Below, in pieces: positions 26,084-46,126 of a stretch of DNA of 50,083 bases. The stretch's first letter is position 1; every line of letters begins with the position of its first letter. Source of the DNA: Dehalococcoidia bacterium (GTDB lineage Bacteria; Chloroflexota; Dehalococcoidia; Lucifugimonadales; UBA1127); the NCBI GenBank assembly GCA_963694315.1, contig CAVOCU010000002.1:1-50083 (forward strand), written 5' to 3'. The notes beneath the pieces were generated by a model. It was not told the DNA's origin. It saw only the letters and a program-made list of their open reading frames with translations, and ran no database searches. Both the position numbers and the translations under genes were made by a program.

Positions 26084-26647
26084 CTACGAAGCGGCAAAGG
26101 TCTTGCGGAACCGTTGGAGGTTGTCCTCAAGGGAGACCTCGGGTCGATTCGGCTTGTCCCCGCCTTCAACGTCTGCCACGATGCACCACGGGCCGTCCTC
26201 CGTCATAGCGCGGTCAAACATCTCCTCCAGAGCCTCTAGCGTAGACACAGCTTCCACCTTCGGAATACCAGCGCCCTTCGCTATAGCGGCAAGGTCAGTG
26301 ACGCCTGCCGTGTGTGTTGGCTGACCGCCCGTCCCTGCCCACTGGTGGTTGTCCCACACAATATGGATCATGTTGCGAGGGTTCTGTCGGGCAATGGTGC
26401 CTAGCGAGCCCAGGTTCATCAGCAGTGAGCCATCGCCGTCCATGACAATAACCTTGCGGTCAGGCGCAGCAAGGGCTACGCCAAGGCCTATGGATGATGA
26501 CAGCCCCATTGCCCCCCAGGTGTACAGGTTGGCATCCCGTTCCTCAGACAGGTTGTGAAGGTGGAACGTAGTACCTCCCAGGTTGGCGATGATAGGTTCA
26601 TCTTTCACGCGATCTAGAACTGACTGGATGGCATCAAGCCGGAGCAT
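26084..26647 (-). CDS. TPP-dependent decarboxylase beta subunit (sulfopyruvate decarboxylase ComE-like; PP domain)
   Basis: Contains the TPP motif VMDGDGSLLMNLG...N. I chose ATG 26647 because AGGAGG lies 5 nt upstream. Confidence 0.7.
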   Translation of the reverse strand: MLRLDAIQSVLDRVKDEPIIANLGGTTFHLHNLSEERDANLYTWGAMGLSSSIGLGVALAAPDRKVIVMDGDGSLLMNLGSLGTIARQNPRNMIHIVWDNHQWAGTGGQPTHTAGVTDLAAIAKGAGIPKVEAVSTLEALEEMFDRAMTEDGPWCIVADVEGGDKPNRPEVSLEDNLQRFRKTFAAS

Positions 26648-27146
26648 CGCGGCCTCCTGTGAGCAGAGTTGAGAGGAGATTGGCAACGGGCAATCGTCCG
26701 GCGTAGCAGAGTGCTATCCCGCCTTTGATGATTGCGTCCAACTCGTCCTCTCTGGTAAGGCTGAAGTACTGCAACCCCAACGAATCAAGAATGCCGGGTA
26801 TGGCCCTGGCACCAGGAACCTGCGCCATGTTGAACTCGCCGGGCCCGCCTCGCATACCAATGAACATGGGGAAGGGGATGCGTGAGGGGATGTTCAGTGT
26901 AGCCAGCGCGTTGATGCAGTTGCCAAAGCCGCTGCTCTGCATGAAGACCGCGCCGCACTTTCCGGCAGCGTATGCCCCGGAGATAATGCCGATAGCTTCC
27001 TCTTCTCGAGAGGAAGGCACCATATGGAAGAAGGGGTCCTGTTCCATTTTGCTGAGGATGCGCCAGGTAATCCCGTCAGGGACGTAGGCAATGATGCTGA
27101 CGTCCGCGTCTTTAAGACCCTGGATGATTTGATCTGCCCAGGCCAT
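26634..27146 (-). CDS. TPP-dependent decarboxylase alpha subunit (sulfopyruvate decarboxylase ComD-like; PYR domain)
   Basis: PYR-domain pattern SREEEAIGIISGAYAAGKCGAVFMQSSGFGN. I chose ATG 27146 because AGGAG lies upstream. It overlaps the beta-subunit start by 14 nt. Confidence 0.7.
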   Translation of the reverse strand: MAWADQIIQGLKDADVSIIAYVPDGITWRILSKMEQDPFFHMVPSSREEEAIGIISGAYAAGKCGAVFMQSSGFGNCINALATLNIPSRIPFPMFIGMRGGPGEFNMAQVPGARAIPGILDSLGLQYFSLTREDELDAIIKGGIALCYAGRLPVANLLSTLLTGGRDAPA

Positions 27147-27280
27147 ATAGCTACTCCTGTTGCAGGATTCTCCTGCTCCTGATCCCTTGCACAATGATTA
27201 GGCAGGGACAGCTTAGGACAAACCAGCGTGAAGGGCTAGCCCTGAACCCTCTTCCTGCGATTGCCTAGGGGTCGGTTGGG

Positions 27281-32702: not shown

Positions 32703-34181
32703 CTAGGGGAGGTTAAGCGCGGCTGCGTCGGCTGCGGGGAGGATGACGTCGGTGGCGTTCTCAATGATGTTCACCAGCGGTTCAGGGTAGACGCCTAACA
32801 AGATGACAATAATTACCAGGACACCAACCAGCCCGTACAGGAGGTTGGGCACCTTGATTGCGCCTTCTTCGCCGTCCGCTGCCGGACTGATGTACATCTG
32901 TCGCACAACGTTCAGGTAGTAGTAGAGGGAGATGAGGCTGGCAACCATTGCCACACCCGCCAGCCAGAGCAAGTCCTCTGCCGCCGCTGCGGAGAAGAGG
33001 TAGAACTTGGTGACAAACCCCGCCAGGAACGGTAGACCCGCCAGTGAGAACAGCGATACGGTGATGGCTGCTGCCAGGAACGGCGAGCGACCCGCCAGCC
33101 CGGCGAAATCTACGATGTCTTCTTTGCCGGTGACGTTGTAAAAGGCGGTGATGGCGAAGAACACGGCCAGATTGGTAGCTGAATACCCTACAAGGTGCAC
33201 CATCAGGCCGTTGGATGACAGGGTTGATAGTGAGGCGATGCCCATGAGCAGAAAGCCCACCTGCCCCACGCTGGAGTACGCCAGCATACGTTTCACGTTG
33301 GTCTGTGCCAGGGCTACCAGGTTGCCGAAGAGCATGGTCAAGGCCGCCAGTCCGGCAATGAGTACGTTCCATTGGTCAATGGCGGGCAGGAGCCCTTCTG
33401 CGAAGAGCCGTAGCACCAGCGCAAAGGCAGCAACTTTAGACCCCACGGCAATGTATGCCGTTATCGGCATCGGAGCGCCCTCATAGACGTCCGGGGCCCA
33501 CATGTGGAAGGGCACTGCTGCCATCTTGAAACCCAGGCCGGAGATCAGCAGCGTTAGGCCTATCAGCAGCCTGCCATCAATGTCCTCAATGCCCTCAAGC
33601 GCAACGGCCATCTCCGCGAAGCTGGTGGTACCCAGCGCGCCGTACAGCATAACGATACCGTAGAGCAGCAACCCTGAGGAGAATGCTCCAAGCAGGATGT
33701 ACTTCACCGATGCCTCGTTCGACTTGCTGTCGTGTAGGGCGAAGCCGCTGAGAATGTAGAGACAGAAGCTCAACAACTCGAGAGATAGGTAGGCGGTTAG
33801 AAGTTCACCGGAAGCTGCCATCATCATCATGGCCAGCACGGAGAGCAGGATGATTGCGTAGTACTCGCCGGGGTGCGTCAGGTAGCGACCAACGAAGTGG
33901 ATGGAGCCAAGTATCACCGCGCCGCCGATGGCCATAGATAACACCTTGAAGAAGAGAGCGTAATCGTCAACGCGATAGAGGCCGTTGAAGAGGCTATCGG
34001 TCTCGTTCATTAGGTGCGGGATGGTGAAGGCCAGAATACCCGCCAGGCCAATGACGGACACCCACGCCAGGATGTTCTTCCGCTCTGGGCGCAGGAAGAA
34101 GTCCAACGTGAAAATGACAAAGGCCAGCCCTGCTACCAGGAACTCCGGCCAAAGCAATTCAAAGCGTACTTCTGCTGGCAT
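32703..34181 (-). CDS. nuoN: NADH-quinone oxidoreductase subunit N
   Basis: 492-aa polytopic antiporter-like subunit at the last position in the nuo cluster. Confidence 0.9.
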   Translation of the reverse strand: MPAEVRFELLWPEFLVAGLAFVIFTLDFFLRPERKNILAWVSVIGLAGILAFTIPHLMNETDSLFNGLYRVDDYALFFKVLSMAIGGAVILGSIHFVGRYLTHPGEYYAIILLSVLAMMMMAASGELLTAYLSLELLSFCLYILSGFALHDSKSNEASVKYILLGAFSSGLLLYGIVMLYGALGTTSFAEMAVALEGIEDIDGRLLIGLTLLISGLGFKMAAVPFHMWAPDVYEGAPMPITAYIAVGSKVAAFALVLRLFAEGLLPAIDQWNVLIAGLAALTMLFGNLVALAQTNVKRMLAYSSVGQVGFLLMGIASLSTLSSNGLMVHLVGYSATNLAVFFAITAFYNVTGKEDIVDFAGLAGRSPFLAAAITVSLFSLAGLPFLAGFVTKFYLFSAAAAEDLLWLAGVAMVASLISLYYYLNVVRQMYISPAADGEEGAIKVPNLLYGLVGVLVIIVILLGVYPEPLVNIIENATDVILPAADAAALNLP

Positions 34182-34227
34182 CTATTTACACTCTACCTGT
34201 CATAGTTACTAGTCTAGCCTCGTATTT

Positions 34228-34255
34228 ATATATCGCTGCCGCGCGGGGACTAAAG
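34228..34255 (-). repeat. Single A-type repeat unit in the nuoM/nuoN gap
   Basis: ATATATCGCTGCCGCGCGGGGACTAAAG. Confidence 0.7.
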
Positions 34256-34289
34256 ACTCCGCGCATCCTCGCCCGTAGGGCTTGCCCTG

Positions 34290-35798
34290 TTAGCTGCCAA
34301 ACCTTTCCATGATTGGAACCACGCCACTGTCGATGATCTCGACGATACGGAAGGGATACAGCCCCCACAGGAGCAGGAAGCCCGTTAGCATGACAGCAAC
34401 GCCCGTTTCCAAGCGGTTAGCGTCCTCCAGATCCTTCCAGCGGTTGTCAATGGGGCCAAAGAATACCTTGCCCAACAATCGGAGGATGTACACCGCAGTG
34501 ATTGCCGCGCCTATCACCCCCAGGATTGCCAGGATGGGGTAAGTCCGGTACGTGCCGATGAACACCAGGAGTTCCGCCACAAAGCTGCTGAACCCTGGGA
34601 GACCCAAGGACGTCAGTCCCGCAACCGCCAGGAACACCCCTGTGATGCCCATGCGCTTGCCAAGACCCTCCAGGAGGGTGATGTCCCGGATGTGTGTTCG
34701 TTGATAGATGATGCCTACCATGGCGAAGAAGAGGGCCGTCATAATGCCGTGGGAGAACATCTGAAGCACTGCGCCGTCCACTGCCAGGACATCAAGGGTG
34801 CCTAGGCCCATGAGGACGTACCCCATGTGGCTGACGCTTGAGTAACCAATGACGTACTTCAAGTCCTTTTGACCAAGCGCAGAGATAGCACCATAGAGGA
34901 CGTTCACCGTGCCCAACCCAATGAGGGTGGGAGCCCAGAACTGCGCCCCTTGCGGCAGAATGACCATGCCCACTGCCAGGATGCCGAAAGCCCCTAGCTT
35001 CATGAGCACGCCTGCGTGAAGCATGCTGACGGCGGTTGGCGCGGCTACGTGACCGTCTGGCGACCACGTATGGAAGGGCCATAGACCCGCCAGGATGCCA
35101 AAGCCAACCATCAGGAACGGGTAGTAGAACTTCTGGAAGCCCTCTGAGAACTTCACCTGCGCCAACCCTGCGATGCTGAAATCGGCGATGCCGGTAATCT
35201 CACTGGCCTCCATCCACATTGCCAGGATGGCAATCCAGACAAGGACGCTGCCAGCCACCAGCACCAGCATGACCTTCATTGCGCCGTACTCTTTGGTACG
35301 GAGGAAAGTGCCGAAGTCTGTGCTGCTGCCCCACACGCCAACCAGCAGGTACATGGGTACCACGGCCAGCTCGTAGAAGAAGAACAGGAAGAAGAGGTCT
35401 TGGGCGGCGAACACGCCATAGACTCCAGCCACCAGCAGCATCAACCAGATAAAGAAGTCCTTGGGTCTATGGGTCACGTTCCAGGAAATCAGCACACCAC
35501 CAAAGAAAATAATCGCGTTAAGCAGCATCAGCGGTACCGTGATGCCTGAGAGGCCCAGGGTGAACCGGATGCCAAGGGATGGCAACCAGTCGAAATCTAC
35601 TGTGTATTTAGTAAGGTCGCCGTTGGTGTCAAAGGTGATGAACAAGTATGCGGCGATGGCCAGCCCGACGGCTGCGATGATCCTGGTATACCAGTGAATC
35701 ATGATATGCCTGTCCGCAGGGAAGAACGCCAGGCCAATGGCGCCAAAGAAGGGAATCGCCACAAGCGCGAAGATGAGGACGCTGTCTATCCCGTTCAT
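34290..35798 (-). CDS. nuoM: NADH-quinone oxidoreductase subunit M
   Basis: Antiporter-like subunit. ATG 35798 forms an ATGA overlap with the nuoL stop. The track ORF starts at TTG 35810. Confidence 0.9.
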   Translation of the reverse strand: MNGIDSVLIFALVAIPFFGAIGLAFFPADRHIMIHWYTRIIAAVGLAIAAYLFITFDTNGDLTKYTVDFDWLPSLGIRFTLGLSGITVPLMLLNAIIFFGGVLISWNVTHRPKDFFIWLMLLVAGVYGVFAAQDLFFLFFFYELAVVPMYLLVGVWGSSTDFGTFLRTKEYGAMKVMLVLVAGSVLVWIAILAMWMEASEITGIADFSIAGLAQVKFSEGFQKFYYPFLMVGFGILAGLWPFHTWSPDGHVAAPTAVSMLHAGVLMKLGAFGILAVGMVILPQGAQFWAPTLIGLGTVNVLYGAISALGQKDLKYVIGYSSVSHMGYVLMGLGTLDVLAVDGAVLQMFSHGIMTALFFAMVGIIYQRTHIRDITLLEGLGKRMGITGVFLAVAGLTSLGLPGFSSFVAELLVFIGTYRTYPILAILGVIGAAITAVYILRLLGKVFFGPIDNRWKDLEDANRLETGVAVMLTGFLLLWGLYPFRIVEIIDSGVVPIMERFGS

Positions 35799-37666
35799 GC
35801 CACCCACCAAGCCAGGGCGATGCCAAGGAAGCCGACGAACATGCCCATTGCATAGGTGTAGAGCTTGCCGTTCTGGACGTAACGCATCAGTCGGCCGGTG
35901 GTGGTTGCGATTGCGCCTGTGCCGTTGACACCAACGTCGTTGATGATAGCGCGGTCAAAGAAGGCCACAAAGCGGCCTGTCACCAGTACCACCTTATCAA
36001 TGAGCCACTGGTAGACCTCGTCAACGTAGTACTTGTTGATGAGCACTCGGTGGACACCGCTGAACCGTCGAATTATGGGCTCCGTCTTCAGGCTTCCCTG
36101 GATGTACGCAAGCCACGCCAGAAGGAAGCCGCTTATCGCCAGGGCTATGGAGCCGATGGCGATGCCCTTGTTCAAATGGAATGCCTCTTGGTGCTCGCCT
36201 GCGAACACGAAGTAACCGAAGCCCTGGTAGGCGTCAGTGTAGTTCAGCGCCATAAACCCGATGGTGAGGGCCAGGAAGGCAAAGATGAGCATCGGAGCAA
36301 GCATCACAACCGGTGATTCATGGGCGTGTTCGTTCTCAGGCTGCAGCTTGCCAAAGAAGACTGCAAAGAACACCCGGCTCATGTACAACGCCTTCATGAA
36401 GCCAATCAGTAGGGCAATCGACATGAAGAACAAGCCCCTGCCGTCAAACACGGCAAGGATGACCTCGTCTTTGCTGAAGAACCCGCCGAATGGCGGTATA
36501 CCTCCAAGAGACAGCGCGCCAATCCCAAAAATGATGGCCGTGATGGGCATCTTGCGCCACAGGCCACCCATCTGCCTGATGTCTGTCTGGCCGCTCCCGT
36601 GGGAAATGCTGCCAGCCCCAAGGAACAGGATTGCCTTGGAGAAGCCGTGTACTAGGAGGTGGAACATGCCAGCAGTGACGCTGCCTGCGCCAAGGGCAAA
36701 CATCATGAAGCCCAAGTCTGTCAGCGTTGAATACGCCAGAATTCGCTTGATGTCTGTCACTACCAGGGCTATTGCGGCCGCGCCTATGGCAGTGAATGCC
36801 CCAATGAGCGTCACCATCAACGCAGCCGATTCTGAATGCTCGTAGAAGGGGAACATACGGGCCACTAGGTATACACCTGCCACAACCATGGTGGCAGAGT
36901 GAACCAGAGCGCTTACCGGGGTTGGGCCTTCCATGGCGTCTGGCAGCCAGACGTGGAGTGGGAACTGGGCCGACTTGCCGATGGCTCCCAGGAAGAGCAG
37001 CACCGCCGCCGCTGTTATGACAGTGTCTGACAGGCTGCCGTTCTCCACCATTGCGAAGATGGCCGAGAGTTCAAAGGTGCCTGTCTTGGCGAAGAGCAGA
37101 AGGATGCCGATGAGGAGCCCAACATCGCCGATGCGAGTCGTTATGAAGGCTTTCTTGGCTGCTTCGGCTGCCGATCTCCGCTCATAGAAAAAGCCGATGA
37201 GCAGGTAGCTACAGATGCCTACCAACTCCCACGCGATATACAAGAGCAGCAGGTTGTCGGCCAGCACCAGCGTCAGCATGGCTGCGGCGAACAGGGAGTG
37301 TACAGCAAAGAACCAGGTGAATCGGGGCTCATGGGCCATGTAGCTCCAAGTGTAGACCTGAATACCAAGAGCCGCCGCAGTGACCAGGCCCAGCATGACA
37401 AGAGAGATGGGGTCTATGACCATGCCCCAGGTGAAGACAGACCCTCCCGCTTTCATCCAGTCAAAGCTGTAGCCAAAGGCTTTAACTTCCGGCAAGGACT
37501 CCATGGAGAGCCAGTCAGCCAGCACAAACCAGAAGAGGACAAAGCCTATCGCCATCGTCCCTGTGGCTGCAATTGCAGACCAGTTGGGAAGACGTCGACC
37601 AGCCGTCGCCAAAAAGAAGAAGGCGATAGCAGGCAGTAACGGAATGAGCCAGGCGTATTCCATCAT
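35795..37666 (-). CDS. nuoL: NADH-quinone oxidoreductase subunit L
   Basis: 623-aa antiporter-like subunit with a long C-terminal extension. Confidence 0.92.
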   Translation of the reverse strand: MMEYAWLIPLLPAIAFFFLATAGRRLPNWSAIAATGTMAIGFVLFWFVLADWLSMESLPEVKAFGYSFDWMKAGGSVFTWGMVIDPISLVMLGLVTAAALGIQVYTWSYMAHEPRFTWFFAVHSLFAAAMLTLVLADNLLLLYIAWELVGICSYLLIGFFYERRSAAEAAKKAFITTRIGDVGLLIGILLLFAKTGTFELSAIFAMVENGSLSDTVITAAAVLLFLGAIGKSAQFPLHVWLPDAMEGPTPVSALVHSATMVVAGVYLVARMFPFYEHSESAALMVTLIGAFTAIGAAAIALVVTDIKRILAYSTLTDLGFMMFALGAGSVTAGMFHLLVHGFSKAILFLGAGSISHGSGQTDIRQMGGLWRKMPITAIIFGIGALSLGGIPPFGGFFSKDEVILAVFDGRGLFFMSIALLIGFMKALYMSRVFFAVFFGKLQPENEHAHESPVVMLAPMLIFAFLALTIGFMALNYTDAYQGFGYFVFAGEHQEAFHLNKGIAIGSIALAISGFLLAWLAYIQGSLKTEPIIRRFSGVHRVLINKYYVDEVYQWLIDKVVLVTGRFVAFFDRAIINDVGVNGTGAIATTTGRLMRYVQNGKLYTYAMGMFVGFLGIALAWWVA

Positions 37667-37670
37667 TGAG

Positions 37671-37691
37671 CCAGGCCAGCCCTATATGTGA
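37671..37691 (-). repeat. Partial D-type repeat module just upstream of the nuoL start, in the 139-bp nuoK/nuoL gap
   Basis: GCCAGGCCAGCCCTATATGTG. Compare the reverse complement of CATATACAGGGGACTGGCCTG. Confidence 0.5.
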
Positions 37692-37805
37692 TGCCCTTAG
37701 ACAATCCAGTCTCCTGATTTCTAATCTTTACCAGAGACAACCACGCTCGTTCAAACCCTGAGTCATTTATTCTCAAGAAGAGTCCTGAGCACGCTCTGAC
37801 CCTGG

Positions 37806-38111
37806 TTACCACTTCATTGAGTCGGCTTCATCAACATTGGCCGTCGCCCTGGCCCTGTAGAGGCGCAGGATGATGGCCATTGCCAGTGCCACCTCCGCTG
37901 CAGCCACCGTGATGACAAAGATCGTAATCACCTGGCCTACCAGTCGCGATGGGTCAAGGAACGCCGCGTAGGCTACTGCGTTGATGTTCACAGCGTTCAA
38001 CATCAACTCAATCGACATCAGGATCATCACCGCGTTCCTACGGGCCAGCACACCATAGACGCCTATGGCGAAGAGGGCTGCGCTTAGGAGTTCAACGTGA
38101 TATAGCTCCAT
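37806..38111 (-). CDS. nuoK: NADH-quinone oxidoreductase subunit K
   Basis: 101 aa with three TM helices, in the canonical position. Confidence 0.9.
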   Translation of the reverse strand: MELYHVELLSAALFAIGVYGVLARRNAVMILMSIELMLNAVNINAVAYAAFLDPSRLVGQVITIFVITVAAAEVALAMAIILRLYRARATANVDEADSMKW

Positions 38112-38680
38112 TAGCTCCGTTCCTCTGGTGTCTGGTCATTGGCCCCATCGGTACCCGTCAGGGAACGTGGGTCCAGAGTATCGCCCTGGCCCTGCCCGTC
38201 TGATGCTCGAGCCAGAATAATCGCGCCAATGAGGGCCATCAATAGAACCAGTGAGGCTATCTCAAAGGGCAAAACCCAGTTGGTGAAAAGCTCTGTGCCC
38301 AACCCTTCAAGGCTTGGGCCAGCGAGCTCTTGTGTATCGAGTTTGTTGTTGAGGATGACACCGGCCATCACACCAAGGAAGCTCAGCGCAGCTACAGCGG
38401 CAACGGCCCATTGGGGGTTGTCGCGGACATTGGAGAATTCCTCAGCGCGAGTCAGCATCAGCGCGAACAGAAGCACGATGGTGATGGCACCCCCGTAGAT
38501 GAGCACCTGCACCAAGGCCAGAAACTCAGCCATCAGGAGGATGAACACCCCGGCTACAGAAACCAGACTTAGGAGCAGAAAAAGGGCCGCATGGGCCACG
38601 TTGCGTGTGGTCACCACGCCTATCGCGCCACCTAGCACCATTACCGCCAGGAAGGTAAAGGCTACCGCACTGGCATCCAC
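38111..38680 (-). CDS. nuoJ: NADH-quinone oxidoreductase subunit J
   Basis: 189-aa membrane subunit between nuoI and nuoK. Confidence 0.88.
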   Translation of the reverse strand: MDASAVAFTFLAVMVLGGAIGVVTTRNVAHAALFLLLSLVSVAGVFILLMAEFLALVQVLIYGGAITIVLLFALMLTRAEEFSNVRDNPQWAVAAVAALSFLGVMAGVILNNKLDTQELAGPSLEGLGTELFTNWVLPFEIASLVLLMALIGAIILARASDGQGQGDTLDPRSLTGTDGANDQTPEERS

Positions 38681-39312
38681 TACTTGGCCTCCTCTACAGG
38701 GGGCTCTTTAGTCTCCGCACCGGCAGTCGTGTCATTAGCTGGCGCATCTTTAGTTTCTGTAACATCACCGGCAGACGCAGAAACGGCTTTAGTCTCTTCG
38801 CCGACAGGTGCAGTAGCAGCAGCCTTTGCAGCAGCTATAGCGGCTTTCTTAACCTCAGGGGCTATCCAGTTGGACTCAGCCTGATACTTCTTACCCATCT
38901 CCAACAGCACCGGTAGGTCTGACCTACGCCCGTCACGGGCATAGTGGCTGATTTCGTGCTCGTGGCTCATTTCAATGGCGTCAAAGTTGCAGACCTCAAC
39001 GCACAGGCCGCACAGAATGCAGCGACCTAAGTTAATCTCAAACTCTTCAATAATCTTGCGGCGGGTGCTCTTCCCCTCAGCGTGAAGAGGGTTGTCAATC
39101 ATCGTGCCGGACATACACTGCGTGGGGCACATGCGCACGCACACCATGCAGCCAACGCAGTACGGTTCACCCACCTTTGCGTCCCAGGTCAGGGCCGGGA
39201 ACCCAACTTGCCGTTCCATGAGGGGCAAGTGCTGCTTGGGGTACTGGGCAGTCACTGGCTTCCGCAGCGATGTCTGCAGGGTCATTAACATGCCCTTCAA
39301 CGTACTAAGCAC
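38680..39312 (-). CDS. nuoI: NADH-quinone oxidoreductase subunit I (2x[4Fe-4S]) with a C-terminal low-complexity extension of about 50-60 aa
   Basis: Contains CVGCMVCVRMCP and CILCGLCVEVCNFDAIEM. The tail is ...KKAAIAAAKAAATAPVGEETKAVSASAGDVTETKDAPANDTTAGAETKEPPVEEAK. Confidence 0.92.
   Translation of the reverse strand: MLSTLKGMLMTLQTSLRKPVTAQYPKQHLPLMERQVGFPALTWDAKVGEPYCVGCMVCVRMCPTQCMSGTMIDNPLHAEGKSTRRKIIEEFEINLGRCILCGLCVEVCNFDAIEMSHEHEISHYARDGRRSDLPVLLEMGKKYQAESNWIAPEVKKAAIAAAKAAATAPVGEETKAVSASAGDVTETKDAPANDTTAGAETKEPPVEEAK
38706..38830 (+). repeat. Three degenerate CTTTAGT-core units embedded in the 3' end of nuoI, read as E-T-K
   Basis: Cores at 38706-38713, 38748-38755 and 38787-38794, spaced 42 and 39 nt apart. 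The third unit, CTTTAGTCTCTTCGCCG, matches the unit at 5543 for 17 nt. Confidence 0.55.
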
Positions 39313-40465
39313 GGCGCACCTCCCTTGCTGGAATCAGTCTTACGGTTGGCCGTACCTTCTTGGATGCTGTTTTCATATAGATAAACGTGCTGGCAGCTAC
39401 GAGCGTTGTCAGACTCAAAACCGTCTGAACCCAGTTTGGCCACCCGTAGAAGAGCGCAAAGGCCACCATCAGGAAGTTCAGAAAAGAGAGAGGTACCAAC
39501 CCCTGCCAACCAAACGCCATGAGTTGGTCAATACGCAGTCGTGGGAGCGTGCCTCGTAGCCAAAAGATAACAAGAATTACCGAGTAGCACTTGATGAGGA
39601 ACCAGGCCAGCTCTGGCAGCAACGGCCCGGACCAACCGCCAAGGAAGAAAATTGTGACCAGTGCAGCTACCAGGAACGTGTTGATGTACTCAGCAAGGAA
39701 GAATATGGACCAGTGTGCGCCGCTGTACTCGATGAACGGGCCGCCAACCAGCTCCGATTCCGCCTGGAAGATATCGAAGGGGCTGCGCCCCACCTCTGCC
39801 AGCCCCGCCAGCAGGAAAATGACCAAAGCCAGTGGTTGGAGAAGGATGTACCAGGTGTTGCCCTGACCCATAGCAATCTCCGTCAGGTTCAACGTTCCCG
39901 CCAGCATCGCAATGGTGATGGCAATGACAAGCAGAGGTATTTCGTAACTAATTAGTTGGGCAGCACTCCGTAGTCCGCCAATTATGCCGTACTTGTTGGC
40001 AGAGCCCCAGCCAGCCATGAGTAGTCCAATGAGGGACATCCCGGACAGCGCCAGGACGTACAGCAGGCCAAGGGACATGTCCGTCAGGACAAGGCTTGAA
40101 GTAAAGGGAACCGCAATCCACACGGCAAAACTGGGTATAAAGACTGCTAGTGGAGCCAGCCAGTAGACCGGCCGATCAACCCATGCTGGCATAATGTCTT
40201 CTTTGATGAGGAGCTTTAGGCCGTCGGCTATGGGTTGGAGCAGGCCGTAAGGGCCAACTCGCATCGGCCCCATGCGTTGCTGAATGCGAGCCAACGCTTT
40301 GCGCTCAACCCACGTGAGGGAGAGCACAACCACGCTGAGAATGGTCAGCAGGGACAGGGACTTAATCAGGATGTAAACAACGTCTTCTCCGCCGTATCCG
40401 ATGGCCAGGCCTACGATTGCCAGGAGTGCAGCCAGAACAACGCCCAGGGGAATGAGGAGAATCAT
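39305..40465 (-). CDS. nuoH: NADH-quinone oxidoreductase subunit H
   Basis: 386-aa ND1-like membrane subunit. Its start overlaps the nuoD stop by 4 nt. Confidence 0.92.
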   Translation of the reverse strand: MILLIPLGVVLAALLAIVGLAIGYGGEDVVYILIKSLSLLTILSVVVLSLTWVERKALARIQQRMGPMRVGPYGLLQPIADGLKLLIKEDIMPAWVDRPVYWLAPLAVFIPSFAVWIAVPFTSSLVLTDMSLGLLYVLALSGMSLIGLLMAGWGSANKYGIIGGLRSAAQLISYEIPLLVIAITIAMLAGTLNLTEIAMGQGNTWYILLQPLALVIFLLAGLAEVGRSPFDIFQAESELVGGPFIEYSGAHWSIFFLAEYINTFLVAALVTIFFLGGWSGPLLPELAWFLIKCYSVILVIFWLRGTLPRLRIDQLMAFGWQGLVPLSFLNFLMVAFALFYGWPNWVQTVLSLTTLVAASTFIYMKTASKKVRPTVRLIPAREVRRA

Positions 40466-41580
40466 CGATCCACCTCTCCAAGGACGATGTCCAGAGAGCC
40501 GAGGATCATGACAGCATCTGCTACGTAGACGCCGCGCAGCATAGTGCGGAGCGCCTGAAGGTTGGCAAATGAGGGTGCCCGCACCTTGAGGCGATACGGT
40601 TTGTCTCCACCGTCAGTGACTATGTAGACACCCATCTCGCCGCGGGGTGTTTCTGATCGGAAGTAGACCTCTCCTGCAGGTGGGCGAGGGATGCTTCGGA
40701 CGCCGGTGGCCTTGGTAGGGCCGTCGTCAGGCATCTGTTCCAATGCTTGTTTGATGATGCGAATGGATTGGCGCATCTCTTCCACGCGCATGGCGTATCG
40801 ATCCCAGGTGTCGCCGGTGTTGCCAAGGGGGATATCGAAATCGAATCGGTCATAGACGGAGTAGGGCTCAATCACGCGAATATCGTCTGGAATGCCGGAA
40901 GCACGTAGCGATGGCCCGGTTAGGCCGTAATCCAGTGCGTCCTGGCCGTTGATAATCCCAACGTTCCTTGCACGGGCAAGGAAGACCTCATTGTAGGTGA
41001 GCAGCTTATCGCCTTCCTCAATACCCTTCTCCAGGGCAGGGAGGATGCCTGCTACACGCTCGGCGAAATCGTCCGGTGGGTCTTCACGCAATCCGCCAAT
41101 GCGGAAGTAGTTGTGCATCATCCGTGCGCCGCTGGTGGCTTCAAAGAGGTTCTGGATGCGCTCACGCTCACGAAAGCCGTACATGATAGGCGTCATAGCT
41201 CCGGCGTCCAGGCCCATAGTGCCGTAGAAGAGCATGTGGCTGGAGATACGGTTAAGCTCGCAGAGGATGACCCGGATGTACTCGGCGCGTTCAGGGACGG
41301 TGATGCCCATGACCTTTTCAACAGTGGAGCAGATTGCCAACTCCATGTTGTAGTTGCCAATGTAGTCCATGCGGTCAAATAGCGTGATGATCTGGGGGTA
41401 AAGCTCACCCTCGCACAGCTTCTCGGAACCGCGGTGGAGGTAGCCAATGTGGGGTTCTGCTTCAACGATGCGCTCGCCGTCTACCCAAAGCACCATGCGA
41501 AAGACTCCATGGGTTGATGGGTGCTGAGGCCCCATGTTGACCATGATGTCTACGGATTCAAGCCGCTGCGCTTCAGTCAT
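40462..41580 (-). CDS. nuoD: NADH-quinone oxidoreductase subunit D
   Basis: NMGPQHPSTHGVFRMVL...GYLHRGSEK, 49-kDa subunit family. Confidence 0.95.
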   Translation of the reverse strand: MTEAQRLESVDIMVNMGPQHPSTHGVFRMVLWVDGERIVEAEPHIGYLHRGSEKLCEGELYPQIITLFDRMDYIGNYNMELAICSTVEKVMGITVPERAEYIRVILCELNRISSHMLFYGTMGLDAGAMTPIMYGFRERERIQNLFEATSGARMMHNYFRIGGLREDPPDDFAERVAGILPALEKGIEEGDKLLTYNEVFLARARNVGIINGQDALDYGLTGPSLRASGIPDDIRVIEPYSVYDRFDFDIPLGNTGDTWDRYAMRVEEMRQSIRIIKQALEQMPDDGPTKATGVRSIPRPPAGEVYFRSETPRGEMGVYIVTDGGDKPYRLKVRAPSFANLQALRTMLRGVYVADAVMILGSLDIVLGEVDR

Positions 41581-41612
41581 ACCCTACAGTCTCTTGTGAT
41601 TGTGGCATGGGC

Positions 41613-41653
41613 AGGGGGTGCCCTTATAAGCGTTGTTCATAGAGGCACCCCCT
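41613..41653. other. 10-bp GC-rich stem with a 21-nt loop in the OFOR-beta/nuoD gap
   Basis: AGGGGGTGCC...GGCACCCCCT. No U-tract follows it in the minus-strand sense, so it is not a canonical terminator. Confidence 0.4.
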
Positions 41654-41706
41654 ACACCGTGCTGTGATTCAAATGTTTTTGCCCTTGGGCAACCTGTGGC
41701 GGTCGG

Positions 41707-42591
41707 CTACATCATCCTGCCAAGAAGCTTCTTTGTCTGGTCCTCGGTGATCTTGAGGGGCCGAGACGACATAGGGCCATCCTTCAGGACAGGCTCTCGT
41801 GCATCAAGGGATGCAATGCCGTGACCTTGGAAGAAGAGGCCAATGTTGATGGTGTCTCCCCACTCCATAGCCTTTTCGCAAGCGGCCTTCCAGTCGCTTG
41901 AGTCGTGGCCCTGCTCCTCCAACTTGCTCACCCTGCTCTTGAAGAAATCGTGGGAATTATCGTCGTTGAAGGTCACGCAGGGGCTGAAGATGTCTACAAG
42001 GGAGAAGCCTTTGTGCTCAATGGCGCCCTTGATCATGGCCGTGGTGTGCCGGATGTCGCCGCTGTACGCGCGGGCAACGTAGGTTGCACCGTTCATGATA
42101 GCGGAGGTGATGGGGTTGATGGGTGTCTCTACGTTGCCAAAGGGCGTGCTCTTGGTCTTCATATCCAACCGACTGGTTGGTGAAATCTGCCCGGTGGTCA
42201 GACCGTAGATCTGGTTGTTCATGACAATGTAGGTGAGGTCAACGTTGCGGCGTGATGTGTGGGCGAGGTGGTTGCCGCCAATGCCGTAGCCGTCACCGTC
42301 TCCGCCGGTAGCAATGACCGTGAGTTCATGGTTGGCCATCTTGGCGCCCGTGGCAAAGGCCAGGGAACGCCCGTGGAGGGTGTGCATGCCATAGGAGTTG
42401 ATGTACCCCGGCAAGTTAGAAGAACACCCAATGCCACTTACCGTGAGAATCTGATGGGGCTGAAGGCCCAACTCAGCACAGGCACGTTGTAGCGAGTTTA
42501 GTACACCAAAGTCGCCACAGCCAGGACACCAGTCAGGGCTTGTTCCGGACCTAAAATCCGCGGCAGTTAATTCAATAGTTCCAGTAGTCAT
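41707..42591 (-). CDS. 2-oxoacid:ferredoxin (acceptor) oxidoreductase beta subunit (TPP/[4Fe-4S])
   Basis: Contains WCPGCGDFG and the TPP-binding motif GGDGDGYGIGGNH...NNQIYGLTTGQ. Confidence 0.9.
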   Translation of the reverse strand: MTTGTIELTAADFRSGTSPDWCPGCGDFGVLNSLQRACAELGLQPHQILTVSGIGCSSNLPGYINSYGMHTLHGRSLAFATGAKMANHELTVIATGGDGDGYGIGGNHLAHTSRRNVDLTYIVMNNQIYGLTTGQISPTSRLDMKTKSTPFGNVETPINPITSAIMNGATYVARAYSGDIRHTTAMIKGAIEHKGFSLVDIFSPCVTFNDDNSHDFFKSRVSKLEEQGHDSSDWKAACEKAMEWGDTINIGLFFQGHGIASLDAREPVLKDGPMSSRPLKITEDQTKKLLGRMM

Positions 42592-42604
42592 ATCAGCTTC
42601 CTCC

Positions 42605-44383
42605 CTAGACGTTCACTTCTTGATATGGGACGTAGGTGTCCACCTTGCCTGCAAGAATCTCCTGTACACCATCAGCAATGTGATGGGGCATGAATGGCTC
42701 TCCGTCATACTTGCGGATGTGGTTGTTGATGGTGAGGCCTGTCTCGCTCCTCAGATAGCGATAGAACTGGCCTGAGAAGTTGTTCTCCACCACAATGGTG
42801 CGCTTGGCCTTGTTGACCACGTTTGTAATGGCCTCGCCGTGCAGCGGGACCATCCATTTAACGGCAATTTGATTGGCGGTGACTCCGCGTTCCTTGAGGG
42901 TAGCAATAGCCTCGCGGATAACGCCCTCAGTGGATCCCCATCCTACGATGGTGACCTCAGCGTCTACCGGGCCTTCCAACACGGGGGCCTCAATGGCTTT
43001 TTCGATGTTTTCGAACTTACGGGCACGCTTTTCCACCATCTTCCGACGCTTGTGTGGATTGGTGAACTCGTCGCTGAGAAGGGAGCTGTTCTCGTCGTGC
43101 TCATCGGTTGCAACCACGTGGACAAAGCCCTTGGTGCCGGGGACGGCTCGAGGCGAAATGCCAGTCTCCGTGTCCTTGTACCGCATGTAGCCGTTCTGCT
43201 CCGCGTCCTCAGTGATCAGCGCTCCACGGTCAATTACAGGGTTCATGTTGAGGTTGTCCGGGTCCACGCTGAAGGTTCCTTCTGAAATCAGAAGATCAGA
43301 GAGGACAAGGCCCGGGGCCTGATACTTGTCTGTCAGGTTGAACAACTCTGCCATGGTGTTAAAGGCGTCCAGGGCACTCTTGGGGGCTACGATGAAGCGG
43401 GGGAAGTCTCCCTGGCTTGCGCCTAGCATCTGCCAGAGGTCGCCCTGCTCCGTTTTGGTGGGGACTCCGGTAGATGGACCCGCACGTTGCACGTTCACCA
43501 TCACCACGGGAATCTCCATCATTGAGGCTGCGCCAACCGCTTCTGTCATCAGCGCAAATCCACCGCCGGCGGTGGCCGTCATGGCGCGAGTCCCGGTTTG
43601 GGCTGCGCCGATAATCATGTTTGCTGCAGCAATCTCGTCTTCAACCTGCCTGACCATGATTCCAAGGTCCCTGGCGTTCTGGGCAAACCAGTGAAGGACG
43701 CCGGTTGAAGGACTCATTGGATACGCGGCGTAGAACTTGACGCCCGCGGCCGCAGCGCCCATGGCGATGGCTTCATTACCTGCCCATTGCGCTAGGGCAT
43801 GGGGGTTTTCCGGCAACGATCCGCCAAATGCTTCAAAGTTCTTAACTGCGTAATCGTACCCGGCACGGGCAACGCCTACGTTCTCATCAACTACTGCCTG
43901 ACCCTGACGCTGGAAACGCGCTTTAAGGCTCTCTTCCAGGGTCTCAAAGTCCAGACCCATAAGGGCACTGGTGGCGCCAACGGCTACGGTGTTCTGTACC
44001 AGCCGGTTACGGCTGCCAGACAACTCTGATACCGGGAGGGGACATAGGCCAACACCCTTGGCGGCATCGCCTGGCGTGATGGTGTCACCGTTGAATATCA
44101 CGCGGGTGTTGTCTCCCATCAACCTAAGGTGCCGGTCCATGGTGTCCTGGTTGAGGCACACCAACAAATCCAGTTTATCGCCGTGGCTGTATACGGGTTC
44201 TTCCCCAACACGGATGGTGAGGAAAATATGCCCGCCACGGACAATGGATTGATAGGCGTTATAGGCGTTGAGATGGAGGCCTCGACGAATAAACAGTCGG
44301 GCCATGATGTTTCCGGGAGTTGCGATGCCTTGACCGGCCTCGCCTCCAATTGCTAGGGCGAAATCAAATTTCCCTGCAGCCAT
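42605..44383 (-). CDS. 2-oxoacid:ferredoxin (acceptor) oxidoreductase alpha subunit (gamma-alpha fusion, two-subunit type)
   Basis: 592 aa. The N-terminus is gamma-domain-like (IGGEAGQGIATPGNIMA) and is followed by the alpha core (YPMSPST, GGGFALM). RBS GAGGAG lies upstream. Confidence 0.9.
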   Translation of the reverse strand: MAAGKFDFALAIGGEAGQGIATPGNIMARLFIRRGLHLNAYNAYQSIVRGGHIFLTIRVGEEPVYSHGDKLDLLVCLNQDTMDRHLRLMGDNTRVIFNGDTITPGDAAKGVGLCPLPVSELSGSRNRLVQNTVAVGATSALMGLDFETLEESLKARFQRQGQAVVDENVGVARAGYDYAVKNFEAFGGSLPENPHALAQWAGNEAIAMGAAAAGVKFYAAYPMSPSTGVLHWFAQNARDLGIMVRQVEDEIAAANMIIGAAQTGTRAMTATAGGGFALMTEAVGAASMMEIPVVMVNVQRAGPSTGVPTKTEQGDLWQMLGASQGDFPRFIVAPKSALDAFNTMAELFNLTDKYQAPGLVLSDLLISEGTFSVDPDNLNMNPVIDRGALITEDAEQNGYMRYKDTETGISPRAVPGTKGFVHVVATDEHDENSSLLSDEFTNPHKRRKMVEKRARKFENIEKAIEAPVLEGPVDAEVTIVGWGSTEGVIREAIATLKERGVTANQIAVKWMVPLHGEAITNVVNKAKRTIVVENNFSGQFYRYLRSETGLTINNHIRKYDGEPFMPHHIADGVQEILAGKVDTYVPYQEVNV

Positions 44384-44490
44384 ACACTTGCTCCTCTATG
44401 CACTGTTCCTGACAATCACCACTTGATAGATAACTAGGAGAGTATACGGGGAAACACTTTGGACGTATACCTCTGTTCTCTATCTAAGGC

Positions 44491-44519
44491 ATTATATTGC
44501 CTATACCTATAGAAAAAAT
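44491..44519 (-). promoter_or_regulatory. Candidate promoter for the OFOR genes inside the nuo cluster
   Basis: In the minus-strand sense there is a perfect TATAAT (44496-44491) in an AT-rich stretch about 100 nt upstream of the OFOR-alpha ATG. The -35 is poor (ATTTTT). Confidence 0.25.
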
Positions 44520-44593
44520 CTATATCTTAGCTGCTAGTTATATTCCCCACATGGGGCACGGCGCCCCGCACCCCACGCGAGAGCGAGAAGCGT

Positions 44594-45040
44594 CTACCAT
44601 TCTTGATAGTCGTGGAAAGGGAAAGACTTTAGGCCGGGATGCCCCTCAAACCCATCGTACAGGAGGAGCACCTTCAGATCAGGGTGCCCTTCAAAGTTCA
44701 CGCCAAAGAGGTCATGGCCTTCCCGCTCAAACCAATCGGCACCCCGCCACACTCCGGTCACAGAGGGTACCGTGGGCGTTTCAGGGGGTACATTCACCTT
44801 CAACACCAGTTTGTGCCGATGCTCCCGTGACCAGAGGTGATAAACCACCTGCAAGCTGGTCTCGTAGTCGACAACGGAGAGGCACCGAAGGTAATCAAGG
44901 GACAGCGCGGGGTCTTCTCTCAAGATACTGCTTGCTTCCAGAAGACGGTCAACAGCTATAGTAACCACAACCTCATCCAAGGCAGTGGTTACCTCTGGTT
45001 GAAACGGAGTTAACTCCCCTGGCTTGGATACCACGGCCAT
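44594..45040 (-). CDS. nuoC: NADH-quinone oxidoreductase subunit C
   Basis: Contains the 30-kDa subunit motifs (WRGADWFEREGHDLFG). ATG 45040 gives a canonical-length N-terminus. The open frame extends to 45181 or 45169 through repeat-like low-complexity sequence, so the start is uncertain. Confidence 0.85.
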   Translation of the reverse strand: MAVVSKPGELTPFQPEVTTALDEVVVTIAVDRLLEASSILREDPALSLDYLRCLSVVDYETSLQVVYHLWSREHRHKLVLKVNVPPETPTVPSVTGVWRGADWFEREGHDLFGVNFEGHPDLKVLLLYDGFEGHPGLKSFPFHDYQEW

Positions 45041-45082
45041 GAGCGCTTCGCCTCTTTTGTCCAAACCCGGTCCCAGGGGGGC

Positions 45083-45140
45083 TGCTGGCGCATGGCCAGT
45101 CCCTTTAGCTGCTGGTGCCGGAGCCGTCTCCGGGGAGGGC
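45083..45140. repeat. Repeat-like segment (D module plus palindromic B-like module) at the nuoB/nuoC junction
   Basis: CTGGCGCATGGCCAGTCCCTTTAG contains the family 10-mer GGCCAGTCCC and a CTTTAG core. CCGGAGCCGTCTCCGG is a palindrome. The nuoB stop TAA (45105-45107) is the CTAAAG core read on the minus strand. Confidence 0.5.
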
Positions 45141-45767
45141 TGGGGGTCTTTCGGCTGTTCTTCCGCCATACCGCCTCGCATCGTGTTGAATCTTGTCTTG
45201 CAATCGCAGGATGCCGTCCATCAGCGCTTCAGGCCTTGGCGGGCATCCTGGGATATATACGTCAACGGGCACAATGTGGTCTACGCCCATCACCACGGAG
45301 TAGGAACGATAGTAGGGGCCGCCGTTTGTGGCGCAGCTCCCCATGGCAATGACCCACTTGGGCTCAGGCATCTGTTCGTACAGGAGCTTGATGGGCTCTT
45401 CCATCTTTTTCACCACCGTGCCCGCCACAATCATTACGTCTGATTGGCGAGGCGATGGCCAGGTGACGACGCCCATGCGGTCAAGGTCATGGTTGGCCAT
45501 GTACGTGGACATCATTTCAATGGCGCAGCATGCCAGTCCAAAGGTCAGCGGCCAAAGAGAGTTTTTCCTTGCCATGGCAAAGAGGTCCTCTGTGCGTGCA
45601 GTGATGATTCCCGGAGCTGCGCTGCGATACGGCGCTAGGGGGGCAATGTTGCCCTCAGCCGCAGAAGTCGGAGGTAACTCTAAGCTGCTGTTACGACTCC
45701 ATGGCTCGGCCCATGATGGAACTGAAGGGCTGATACCCTTGTTTACGGGTTCCTTCTTTATCGCCAT
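45105..45767 (-). CDS. nuoB: NADH-quinone oxidoreductase subunit B
   Basis: Contains [21 protein letters not shown] and [12 protein letters not shown] chose ATG 45767 because AAGGAG lies 7 nt upstream. The track ORF starts at 45848. Confidence 0.92.
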
Positions 45768-46126
45768 TCCAGAACTCCTTTTCTCCAACCGTAGAGCACG
45801 CCAAACAGGAGGATGGCGATAAACAGGATCATTTCGTAGAAGATCCATGAGGCGCCCGTGAGGAAGGTCAATATCCAGGGAAAGAGGAAAACCGCCTCTA
45901 CGTCAAAGATGAGGAAGAGGATGGCAAAGATGTAGTAGCGAATATGAACCTGCGACCAGGTGAAGGGCATTGGGGGGATGCCGCACTCAAAGGGAAGCTC
46001 CTTGGCATCTGACCGCCGCTTGGGTGCGAGCATGAAGCTTCCCATGAGCATCCCGCCCATAGCTAAAAGCCCAACAATTGCAGCTAGGACAACAGCGATG
46101 TAGTTTAGGGCGTACCCTTCTGGCAT
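45758..46126 (-). CDS. nuoA: NADH-quinone oxidoreductase subunit A
   Basis: ND3-like protein with three TM helices and [12 protein letters not shown] chose ATG 46126 because GGAGGG lies upstream. Confidence 0.88.

Follow-up and report, generated by a model that had tools for sequence, protein, structure and literature searches.

A 2-oxoacid:ferredoxin oxidoreductase encoded between nuoC and nuoD in the 11-subunit complex I operon of a clade of marine Dehalococcoidia

Introduction

The NDH-1 of cyanobacteria and chloroplasts oxidises ferredoxin. In the Dehalococcoidia, an 11-subunit complex I operon without nuoEFG is the norm (PMC4959651, PMC5736913), and what donates electrons to the 11-subunit enzyme is acknowledged to be an open question, to which pyruvate:ferredoxin oxidoreductase (PFOR) together with ferredoxin has been proposed as an answer (PMC4959651, PMC5736913, PMC11238625). 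A precedent for linking such an oxidoreductase to complex I at the level of gene order comes from the archaeon Thermoproteus tenax, whose fqo cluster carries three oor genes at its centre (TTX_0203-0215; Siebers et al. 2011, PMC3189178). The authors of that study called the arrangement "unprecedented" and raised the question of a soluble enzyme as against a replacement for the input module (PMC3189178). Here we analyse a 50,083-nucleotide stretch of DNA from a Dehalococcoidia bacterium (contig CAVOCU010000002.1, positions 1 to 50,083; hereafter the window), in which the genes of a two-subunit 2-oxoacid:ferredoxin oxidoreductase (OFOR) stand between nuoC and nuoD of the complex I operon.

We found no follow-up of the T. 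tenax question in the literature, nor any report of a bacterial nuo cluster with an OFOR inside it. Other work bears on the donor problem from several sides. In Desulfitobacterium hafniense, PFOR with ferredoxin is the leading donor candidate on the basis of proteomic co-variation (PMC11238625), and a search for a common partner of the 11-subunit enzyme failed (PMC3144371; restated in PMC11238625). A separate nuoEFG operon accompanies the 11-subunit operon in at least one other Chloroflexi genome (PMC5736913). The epsilonproteobacterial complex I is fed by 2-oxoglutarate and pyruvate oxidoreductases (OOR and POR) via flavodoxin, according to Weerakoon and Olson (2008) as cited in PMC11238625. 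Two-subunit OFORs such as the 2-oxoglutarate:ferredoxin oxidoreductase (OGOR) of Magnetococcus and the StOFOR of Sulfolobus tokodaii use an external ferredoxin as acceptor (PMC5020499). For the SAR202 group of marine Chloroflexota, a tricarboxylic acid (TCA) cycle in its OGOR form has been reported (PMC5395668), and PFOR is carried as well (PMC5395668, PMC5864207).

Results

A two-subunit OFOR within the nuo operon

In the window, the full set of eleven core genes of an 11-subunit complex I forms one cluster, as assigned by Pfam and NCBIfam matches. Together with the OFOR genes they make up 13 genes on the minus strand (32703-46126), in the order nuoA-nuoB-nuoC-OFOR alpha-OFOR beta-nuoD-H-I-J-K-L-M-N. 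This is the order given by the original prediction, which had been made from the open reading frames (ORFs) of the window, and every gene in it was confirmed by the family matches. The 11-subunit architecture holds as well, since the eleven core genes are present and nuoEFG are not found in the cluster. The OFOR genes are separated from nuoC by a gap of 210 bp (44384-44593) and from nuoD by a gap of 126 bp (41581-41706).

The OFOR alpha subunit (ofoA, 42605-44383, minus strand, 592 residues) is a gamma-alpha fusion of the KorA type. Its Pfam domains are POR gamma (residues 16-177), POR_N (209-433) and PFOR_II (475-569); it scores 608.9 bits against TIGR03710, for which the cut-off is 482.75, and its best match in the PDB is 6N2N_A (E = 2.5e-86). 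The beta subunit (ofoB, 41707-42591, minus strand, 294 residues) comprises TPP_enzyme_C and PFO_beta_C, scores 345.7 bits against TIGR02177 (cut-off 261.9) and best matches 6N2N_B (E = 3.7e-79). It harbors a GDGD motif for binding thiamine pyrophosphate (TPP) at residue 97, and Cys22, Cys25, Cys56 and Cys205 for a single [4Fe-4S] cluster. No Fer4 or delta (2x[4Fe-4S]) domain was matched in the beta subunit by Pfam. The two cut-offs passed and the lack of a Fer4 match agree with the assignment made beforehand, namely a two-subunit OFOR without a delta domain. The nearest solved structures are the Magnetococcus OGOR (6N2N) and StOFOR (5B46-48). Homologues of the window OFOR are named 2-oxoglutarate ferredoxin oxidoreductase by JGI. 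From these names, from an OGOR as the nearest PDB entry and from homologues located beside E2/E3 genes, the substrate is probably 2-oxoglutarate.

The exact OFOR alpha protein was found on at least 19 contigs of ENA, JGI and Logan assemblies, always with identical neighbours. The same arrangement on so many contigs from different assemblies rules out an assembly artefact. Among the records with the arrangement are the complete MAG chromosomes OZ220679.1, OX638292.1, OZ252245.1 and CBDHDD010000002.1. Base composition is even across the cassette.

Distribution and origin of the cassette

A scan with NuoD, using one genome per species, gave 80 loci of 21 kb, all from Dehalococcoidia/SAR202-type marine Chloroflexota, and the proteins of the window were searched against them by tblastn. 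A survey of relatives for the nuoC-OFOR-nuoD synteny had been called for beforehand, and it revealed the order nuoC-ofoA-ofoB-nuoD in nine species-level relatives (L001, L003, which is a partial contig, L005-L010 and L019). One of the refuting conditions laid down in the original prediction, absence of the insertion from all relatives, does not apply. In these KorAB-type relatives, NuoD is 84-92% and OFOR alpha 74-82% identical to the window proteins. The next outgroups, with NuoD identities of 76-80%, have a slot between nuoC and nuoD without OFOR, and the KorAB cassette is absent at every one of the 80 loci whose NuoD is 75% identical or less.

A neighbour-joining tree of NuoD, NuoH, NuoI and NuoK contains two sister clades. 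Clade A consists of L005-L010 and L019, all of the KorAB type, and clade B of the window, L001, L002, L003 and L004/L086. In the tree of OFOR alpha, all nuo-embedded copies form a single clade, within which two subclades follow the branching of the Nuo tree. This pattern indicates one capture followed by vertical co-divergence. The genomic context was read for three homologues outside this clade, which are 73-75% identical, and all three lie in lpd(E3)-ofoA-ofoB-E2 clusters. In these three the conserved neighbourhood runs tatAC, lpd (E3), ofoA, ofoB, E2 acyltransferase, TPP enzyme and thyX. Since the nearest outside homologues examined belong to E3-OFOR-E2 clusters, the position within nuo is derived.

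Two further observations concern related OFOR genes. In the large-genome relatives L081 (6397-14241) and L082-L085, the OFOR is located between E3 and E2 with no E1 gene visible, at the place where E1 would be expected, and a 545-residue TPP enzyme and thyX follow E2. L012 (3702-6397, minus strand) and L175 (311-2889) each have a distant paralogue, also a two-subunit OFOR and 31-44% identical, at 2-4 kb upstream of nuoA. It is separated from nuoA by genes for CcmE, NAD synthase and HIT in L175, and by an ornithine cyclodeaminase-like gene in L012.

A second, unrelated cassette and an empty slot

In the L004 locus, NuoD is 91% identical to its counterpart in the window, and the Nuo core shares 96.8% identity with that of the KorAB-bearing L003. 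Two ORFs immediately upstream of nuoD in L004 together form a split PFOR. The first (alpha-gamma) carries POR_N, PFOR_II and POR domains, and the second (delta-beta) carries two [4Fe-4S] motifs and a TPP-binding domain; they match the two halves of the single-chain pyruvate:ferredoxin oxidoreductase (TIGR02176; PDB 6CIN, 1B0P). No similarity between the split PFOR and the window OFOR was detected by tblastn at E = 1e-5. Two longer contigs with the identical PFOR protein, L086 and L088, show the whole arrangement: a major facilitator superfamily (MFS) gene on the minus strand, nuoA, nuoB and nuoC, the split PFOR, nuoD to nuoN, a thioredoxin-like gene and a second MFS gene. The flanking genes are the same as those of the window. 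In all, the split-PFOR arrangement was found in three independent assemblies and on one metagenome contig (L103). An orthologue of the split PFOR, 74% identical, is located outside nuo.

In two close relatives, L002 and the metagenome contig L104, the slot is empty. The 417-bp spacer of L002 is co-linear with the two spacers of L086, the 3.8-kb cassette being cleanly absent, and a search of this spacer for remnants of OFOR genes found none. A likeness of the L002 spacer to the ribosome-binding region of ofoA, seen in a MAFFT alignment, was rejected because it reflects homology to the downstream flank of L086.

Three states of the slot, KorAB type, split PFOR and empty, are thus met among Nuo cores with identities of about 90% or more. 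Only two metabolic cassettes have been found in the slot; each encodes a 2-oxoacid:ferredoxin oxidoreductase, and the two are unrelated. The functional link between OFOR and complex I suggested in the original prediction gains support from this non-homologous split PFOR, which occupies the same nuoC/nuoD slot in a sister lineage.

Signals in the spacers

The nuoC-ofoA spacers of the nine KorAB-type loci were aligned. They have mostly diverged beyond recognition, and four elements stand out as invariant or nearly so: a palindrome, CGTATACT, GAGGAG and the ATG of ofoA. The palindrome, TATAG-N7-CTATA (44508-44524), is operator-like and is present in every OFOR-bearing slot, with both cassette types; it has the same position in L001, L005-L010, L019, L086 and L088. 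Outside the occupied slots it was found 0 times in 1.87 Mb of related sequence, where about 1.8 occurrences are expected by chance. The empty slot of L002 has a degenerate version (AATAG-N7-CTATG), and neither the E3-OFOR-E2 loci nor those of the non-nuo PFOR orthologue contain the palindrome. The palindrome thus belongs to the slot and not to the former home of either cassette.

The second element, CGTATACT (44441-44448, minus strand), contains the -10-like TATACT and is invariant in all nine KorAB-type spacers. It lies 75-76 bp downstream of the start of the palindrome and about 57 nt before the ATG of ofoA. In clade A, TTGGAC or ATAGAC stands 18 nt ahead of CGTATACT, and the combination looks like a -35/-10 pair. 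The third is a GAGGAG ribosome-binding site (44391-44396, minus strand), located 7 nt before the ATG and conserved in all KorAB-type spacers. A perfect TATAAT had been pointed out in the 210-bp gap, and it is indeed present (44491-44496). A role for it as promoter of the cassette is not supported, since it is not conserved even in L001, the nearest KorAB-bearing relative. The proposal that the cassette is a secondary insertion with its own promoter therefore stands in part: the derived position, the conserved upstream signals and GAGGAG speak for it, but a promoter at the TATAAT finds no support.

Two further motifs were noticed upstream of ofoA. In clade B, GTATAC occurs twice, about 20 bp apart. 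In L007 (1650-1840) the nuoC-ofoA spacer has an extra insertion of about 125 bp with a directly repeated CGACAGGCTCAGGGCGA unit.

Both spacers of the window contain hairpins. Directly after the stop codon of nuoC is a GC-rich hairpin of 17 bp (44545-44582, minus strand; z = -3.36), which none of 200 shuffled sequences matches in stability, which has no U-tract and which the original prediction does not mention. The GC hairpin predicted for the 126-bp gap between ofoB and nuoD was recovered as a strong structure with a 13-bp core stem (41605-41662, minus strand; z = -3.44 against shuffles), likewise without a U-tract. It was considered as a conserved RNA element and rejected, the equivalents in L086 and L002 having z values of -1.3 and -0.2 against shuffles. 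The length of the spacer between ofoB and nuoD varies from 15 bp (L001) to 199 bp among relatives, and the hairpins are not conserved. With only 15 bp between ofoB and nuoD, nuoD must be co-transcribed with the OFOR genes in L001. A search of 32-47 kb of the window against Rfam, in E-value mode, matched no RNA family. A loop-like sequence was also seen downstream of the cassette, as TGAACAACGC in the window (41612-41655) and in L086 (8725-8770), and as TGAACAATCG in L002 (9780-9810). The stems flanking this loop differ, and only the window version folds better than shuffled sequences.

Content of the nuoC/nuoD junction across the class

Across the 80 species representatives, the nuoC/nuoD junction is tight (<150 bp) in 34, intermediate (150-450 bp) in four and filled with at least 450 bp of other content in 30; a KorAB-type OFOR is found in eight, plus the partial L003, and the split PFOR in one (L004). 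For L003 and L004, whose contigs do not include nuoC, the state was assigned from the genes directly upstream of nuoD. L061 and L066, which also have no nuoC on the contig, were left out of these classes.

Most of the other content is small genes, oriented like nuo, that resemble toxin-antitoxin pairs (L015-L078 and many of L105-L181). The cargo families include a 27-member cluster without a Pfam match, HicB-like by sequence, a 15-member TumE family (PF20126) and HicA. In the near outgroup L182 (4190-6785) the slot holds restriction-modification genes, N6_Mtase/Eco57I and Methylase_S. Inserts occur also at other nuo junctions (D-H, H-I, I-J, K-L and L-M; L043, L061, L062, L065, L068, L030 and L054), where they encode a DNA methylase-HNH fusion, Uma2, REase-ARP, DUF4238, PaREP1 and an RmuC-like protein. 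In this class, selfish and defence genes have repeatedly landed in the respiratory operon. Of the cargo found on the nuo strand in the nuoC/nuoD slot, the OFOR cassettes alone are metabolic. They are set apart by this, by the recruitment of one functional class twice from unrelated lineages and by the slot-specific palindrome.

Search for an N-module and for docking surfaces

Searches by tblastn with the E. coli NuoE, NuoF and NuoG gave no match in the window or in about 100 related loci (1.8 Mb), and nuoEFG were not found within 10 kb of nuoD in the 80 related species. SAR202 papers and preprints were also consulted, and no subunit-level account of nuoEFG was found in them.

Extensions on NuoB, NuoI and NuoJ had been put forward as candidate docking surfaces for the OFOR, and none of the three withstood comparison with relatives. 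The N-terminal extension of NuoB, estimated at about 60 residues, is real, but it measures about 52 residues with the corrected start. A comparable extension is found in the OFOR-less L002, L012, L013 and L016. The tail of NuoI is of low complexity, rich in Ala, Glu, Lys, Thr and Pro, and NuoI has 163-217 residues with or without an OFOR; it has 214 in the OFOR-less L002. The tail of NuoJ is short and variable, and also occurs in OFOR-less relatives. Nothing in the sequences favours a dedicated docking surface.

The nuo genes and the rest of the window

All nuo genes are on the minus strand, and the starts of nuoA, nuoB and nuoC had to be revised in the light of in-frame stop codons in relatives and of public gene calls. 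NuoA (45758-46126, 122 residues, PF00507) was given its start from the conserved sequence of relatives and from public gene calls. NuoB (45105-45767, 220 residues, PF01058) scores 225.6 bits against TIGR01957 (cut-off 142.7); its start, MAIKKEP, follows from in-frame stop codons upstream in relatives and from public gene calls, and its CCAIEM, GSCA and GCPP cysteines of cluster N2 are intact. NuoC (44594-45040, 148 residues, PF00329) is delimited as in public gene calls. NuoD (40462-41580, 372 residues) scores 479.1 bits against TIGR01962 (cut-off 459.35). With this cut-off passed and the hydrogenase models below 26 bits, it is of the quinone type and not a [NiFe] hydrogenase. A 489-residue NuoD homologue, 74% identical to the window NuoD, was noticed in the 22-member protein cluster P0255, on a contig of 1.57 Mb. 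Besides the NuoD domain it has precomputed PF13650 and PF13975 matches, and may be a fusion or a gene-call artefact.

The stop codon of nuoD overlaps the start of nuoH (39305-40465, 386 residues, PF00146) as ATGA, and no extra genes lie between the two. This overlap, like the gaps of 210 and 126 bp, was read correctly in the original prediction. NuoI (38680-39312, 210 residues) keeps the ligands for two [4Fe-4S] clusters in its two CxxCxxCxxxC motifs; its C-terminal tail, about 80 residues long, is rich in Ala, Glu and Lys. The remaining subunits are NuoJ (38111-38680, 189 residues, PF00499), NuoK (37806-38111, 101 residues, PF00420), NuoL (35795-37666, 623 residues, PF00361 and PF00662), NuoM (34290-35798, 502 residues by the public gene call, PF00361) and NuoN (32703-34181, 492 residues, PF00361). 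The other genes of the window are housekeeping genes. At 26084-27194 (minus strand), two adjacent ORFs of 200 and 186 residues appear by eye to be the split halves of a TPP-dependent decarboxylase of the sulfopyruvate/phosphonopyruvate decarboxylase type.

Discussion

A proposed role for the embedded OFOR

The comparison with relatives establishes the gene content of the locus and its conservation, the derived origin of the cassette, the motifs specific to the slot and the existence of an alternative OFOR cassette. The presence of two unrelated OFORs at the same nuo position, behind a shared operator-like site, constitutes comparative-genomic evidence for OFOR-reduced ferredoxin as a donor, as far as gene arrangement can speak to it. 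With moderate confidence, we propose that the co-expressed OFOR reduces ferredoxin and the complex I-like enzyme re-oxidises it. On this view, the nuoC/nuoD junction took up a KorAB-like two-subunit OFOR in the common ancestor of one clade of these marine bacteria, and the cassette stands there behind a conserved palindromic operator-like site and a conserved -10-like element, with a strong ribosome-binding site of its own. Transcription would most likely run on into nuoD-N. The OFOR would oxidise a 2-oxoacid, probably 2-oxoglutarate, and pass the electrons to a soluble ferredoxin, which the complex I-like enzyme would re-oxidise, reducing quinone and pumping protons. The point of the gene arrangement would be to co-express a ferredoxin producer with its respiratory consumer.

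Several findings weigh against this proposal. The nuo-embedded OFOR has the same length and domain content as its homologues outside nuo, and so shows no specialisation. An OFOR in the slot is dispensable, as the empty slots of L002 and L104 indicate. The nuoC/nuoD junction is a general insertion hot-spot in the class, and since 30 of the 80 species have unrelated cargo in it, residence in the slot implies no function by itself. No ferredoxin gene linked to the cluster was seen among the small flanking ORFs, and a scan of 32-47 kb for consensus promoters and terminators placed no site in either spacer, the conserved elements having come to light solely when relatives were aligned. Finally, nuoEFG may be encoded elsewhere in the genome, by analogy with the other Chloroflexi genome that has them in a separate operon (PMC5736913).

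The first three of these findings would also be expected if the OFOR were an ordinary soluble enzyme of the TCA cycle or of pyruvate metabolism that persists by inertia as neutral cargo in a permissive hot-spot, all the more as other nuo junctions are also filled. We regard this explanation as unlikely, though as a null model it is a strong one. Random metabolic cargo would very unlikely consist, in both cases, of OFORs from unrelated lineages. Inertia also accords poorly with a palindrome that every occupied slot has conserved and that is degenerate where the slot is empty, and with a cassette kept through divergence to about 75% protein identity.

The position of the cassette inside the genes of the quinone (Q) module, with no ferredoxin gene nearby, also invites a structural reading. 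The OFOR might dock on the Q-module (NuoB, C, D and I) in place of NuoEFG and form a 2-oxoacid:quinone oxidoreductase that needs no free ferredoxin, which is the question raised for the T. tenax fqo/oor cluster (PMC3189178). The split PFOR brings a two-cluster delta domain that could bridge to NuoI. However, relatives without an OFOR have the proposed docking extensions too, and these are of low complexity; the nuo-embedded OFOR contains no domain that its E3-E2 cluster homologues lack; two structurally different OFORs, with and without delta, fit the slot; and an empty slot is viable. We therefore consider direct docking of the OFOR improbable. There is a slim chance that the junction serves as a socket for exchangeable input modules, in which either the KorAB OFOR or the split PFOR would dock on the Q-module and replace NuoEFG. 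Such a socket would make the complex a 2-oxoacid:quinone oxidoreductase that is bound to the membrane and pumps protons, a possibility that goes back to the T. tenax study of 2011.

It is very improbable that the system runs in reverse, with proton-motive force and quinol reducing ferredoxin for an OFOR that acts as a 2-oxoglutarate or pyruvate synthase in anaplerotic CO2 assimilation: the nearest structure, the Magnetococcus OGOR 6N2N, is of what is generally known as a reverse-TCA enzyme, and reverse flow through a variant complex I has been proposed for Nitrospina (PMC3578206), but SAR202 bacteria are described as aerobic organoheterotrophs without an autotrophic pathway (PMC5864207, PMC10444878) and the non-nuo homologues lie beside E2/E3 genes of oxidative 2-oxoacid dehydrogenases.

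If OFOR-reduced ferredoxin does feed the complex I-like enzyme, SAR202-type bacteria would gain additional energy from the low-potential electrons released when 2-oxoacids are oxidised. This would bear on the energetics of SAR202 in the oligotrophic deep ocean, the clade being one of abundant marine Dehalococcoidia. The near-identical Nuo backgrounds with a KorAB cassette, a split PFOR or an empty slot constitute a natural three-state system.

Comparison with known systems

The OFOR itself resembles the Magnetococcus marinus OGOR (6N2N) and StOFOR (5B46-48) in its gamma-alpha fusion plus beta composition, its single [4Fe-4S] cluster and its lack of delta. The genes of those enzymes lie outside nuo clusters, whereas those of the window OFOR lie inside one. 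The complex I-like enzyme shares the nuoABCDHIJKLMN set without nuoEFG with those of Dehalococcoides, DEH-C11 and Desulfitobacterium hafniense. For the 11-subunit enzymes of Dehalococcoidia and Firmicutes, however, candidate donor enzymes are encoded elsewhere, whereas in the window a candidate lies inside the operon.

The window enzyme and NDH-1 have 11 core subunits in common (NDH-1 architecture: PMC3144371). NDH-1 has the dedicated ferredoxin-binding subunits NdhS, NdhV and NdhO and scattered genes, in contrast to the single cluster of the window; none of the three subunits was seen here, although no search aimed at them was made. The epsilonproteobacterial complex I, to the extent that it is described through the citation in PMC11238625, is similar to the system proposed here in that 2-oxoacid oxidoreductases supply a low-potential carrier and no NADH is used. 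According to the same account, NuoG is retained in its operon, two non-homologous genes take the place of nuoE and nuoF, and the OOR and POR genes lie outside the operon. The window differs in that tblastn gave no NuoG match and there are no substitute E/F genes.

The T. tenax fqo/oor cluster is alike in that OFOR genes stand inside a complex I-like cluster without an input module (in T. tenax, an NADH or F420 subunit). It is archaeal and of the Fqo type, its oorA/B/CD genes include a delta-type part by the text of the paper, and it is a single genome with no comparative evidence. The window arrangement is bacterial, has its insertion point between nuoC and nuoD, involves two subunits without delta, extends across a clade and has an alternative PFOR cassette. 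The 11-subunit operon in the class, an OFOR-fed complex I in other organisms and the archaeal precedent for the gene arrangement are thus already known. What is new is a bacterial variant in which two unrelated OFOR cassettes and an empty state occur in the same slot.

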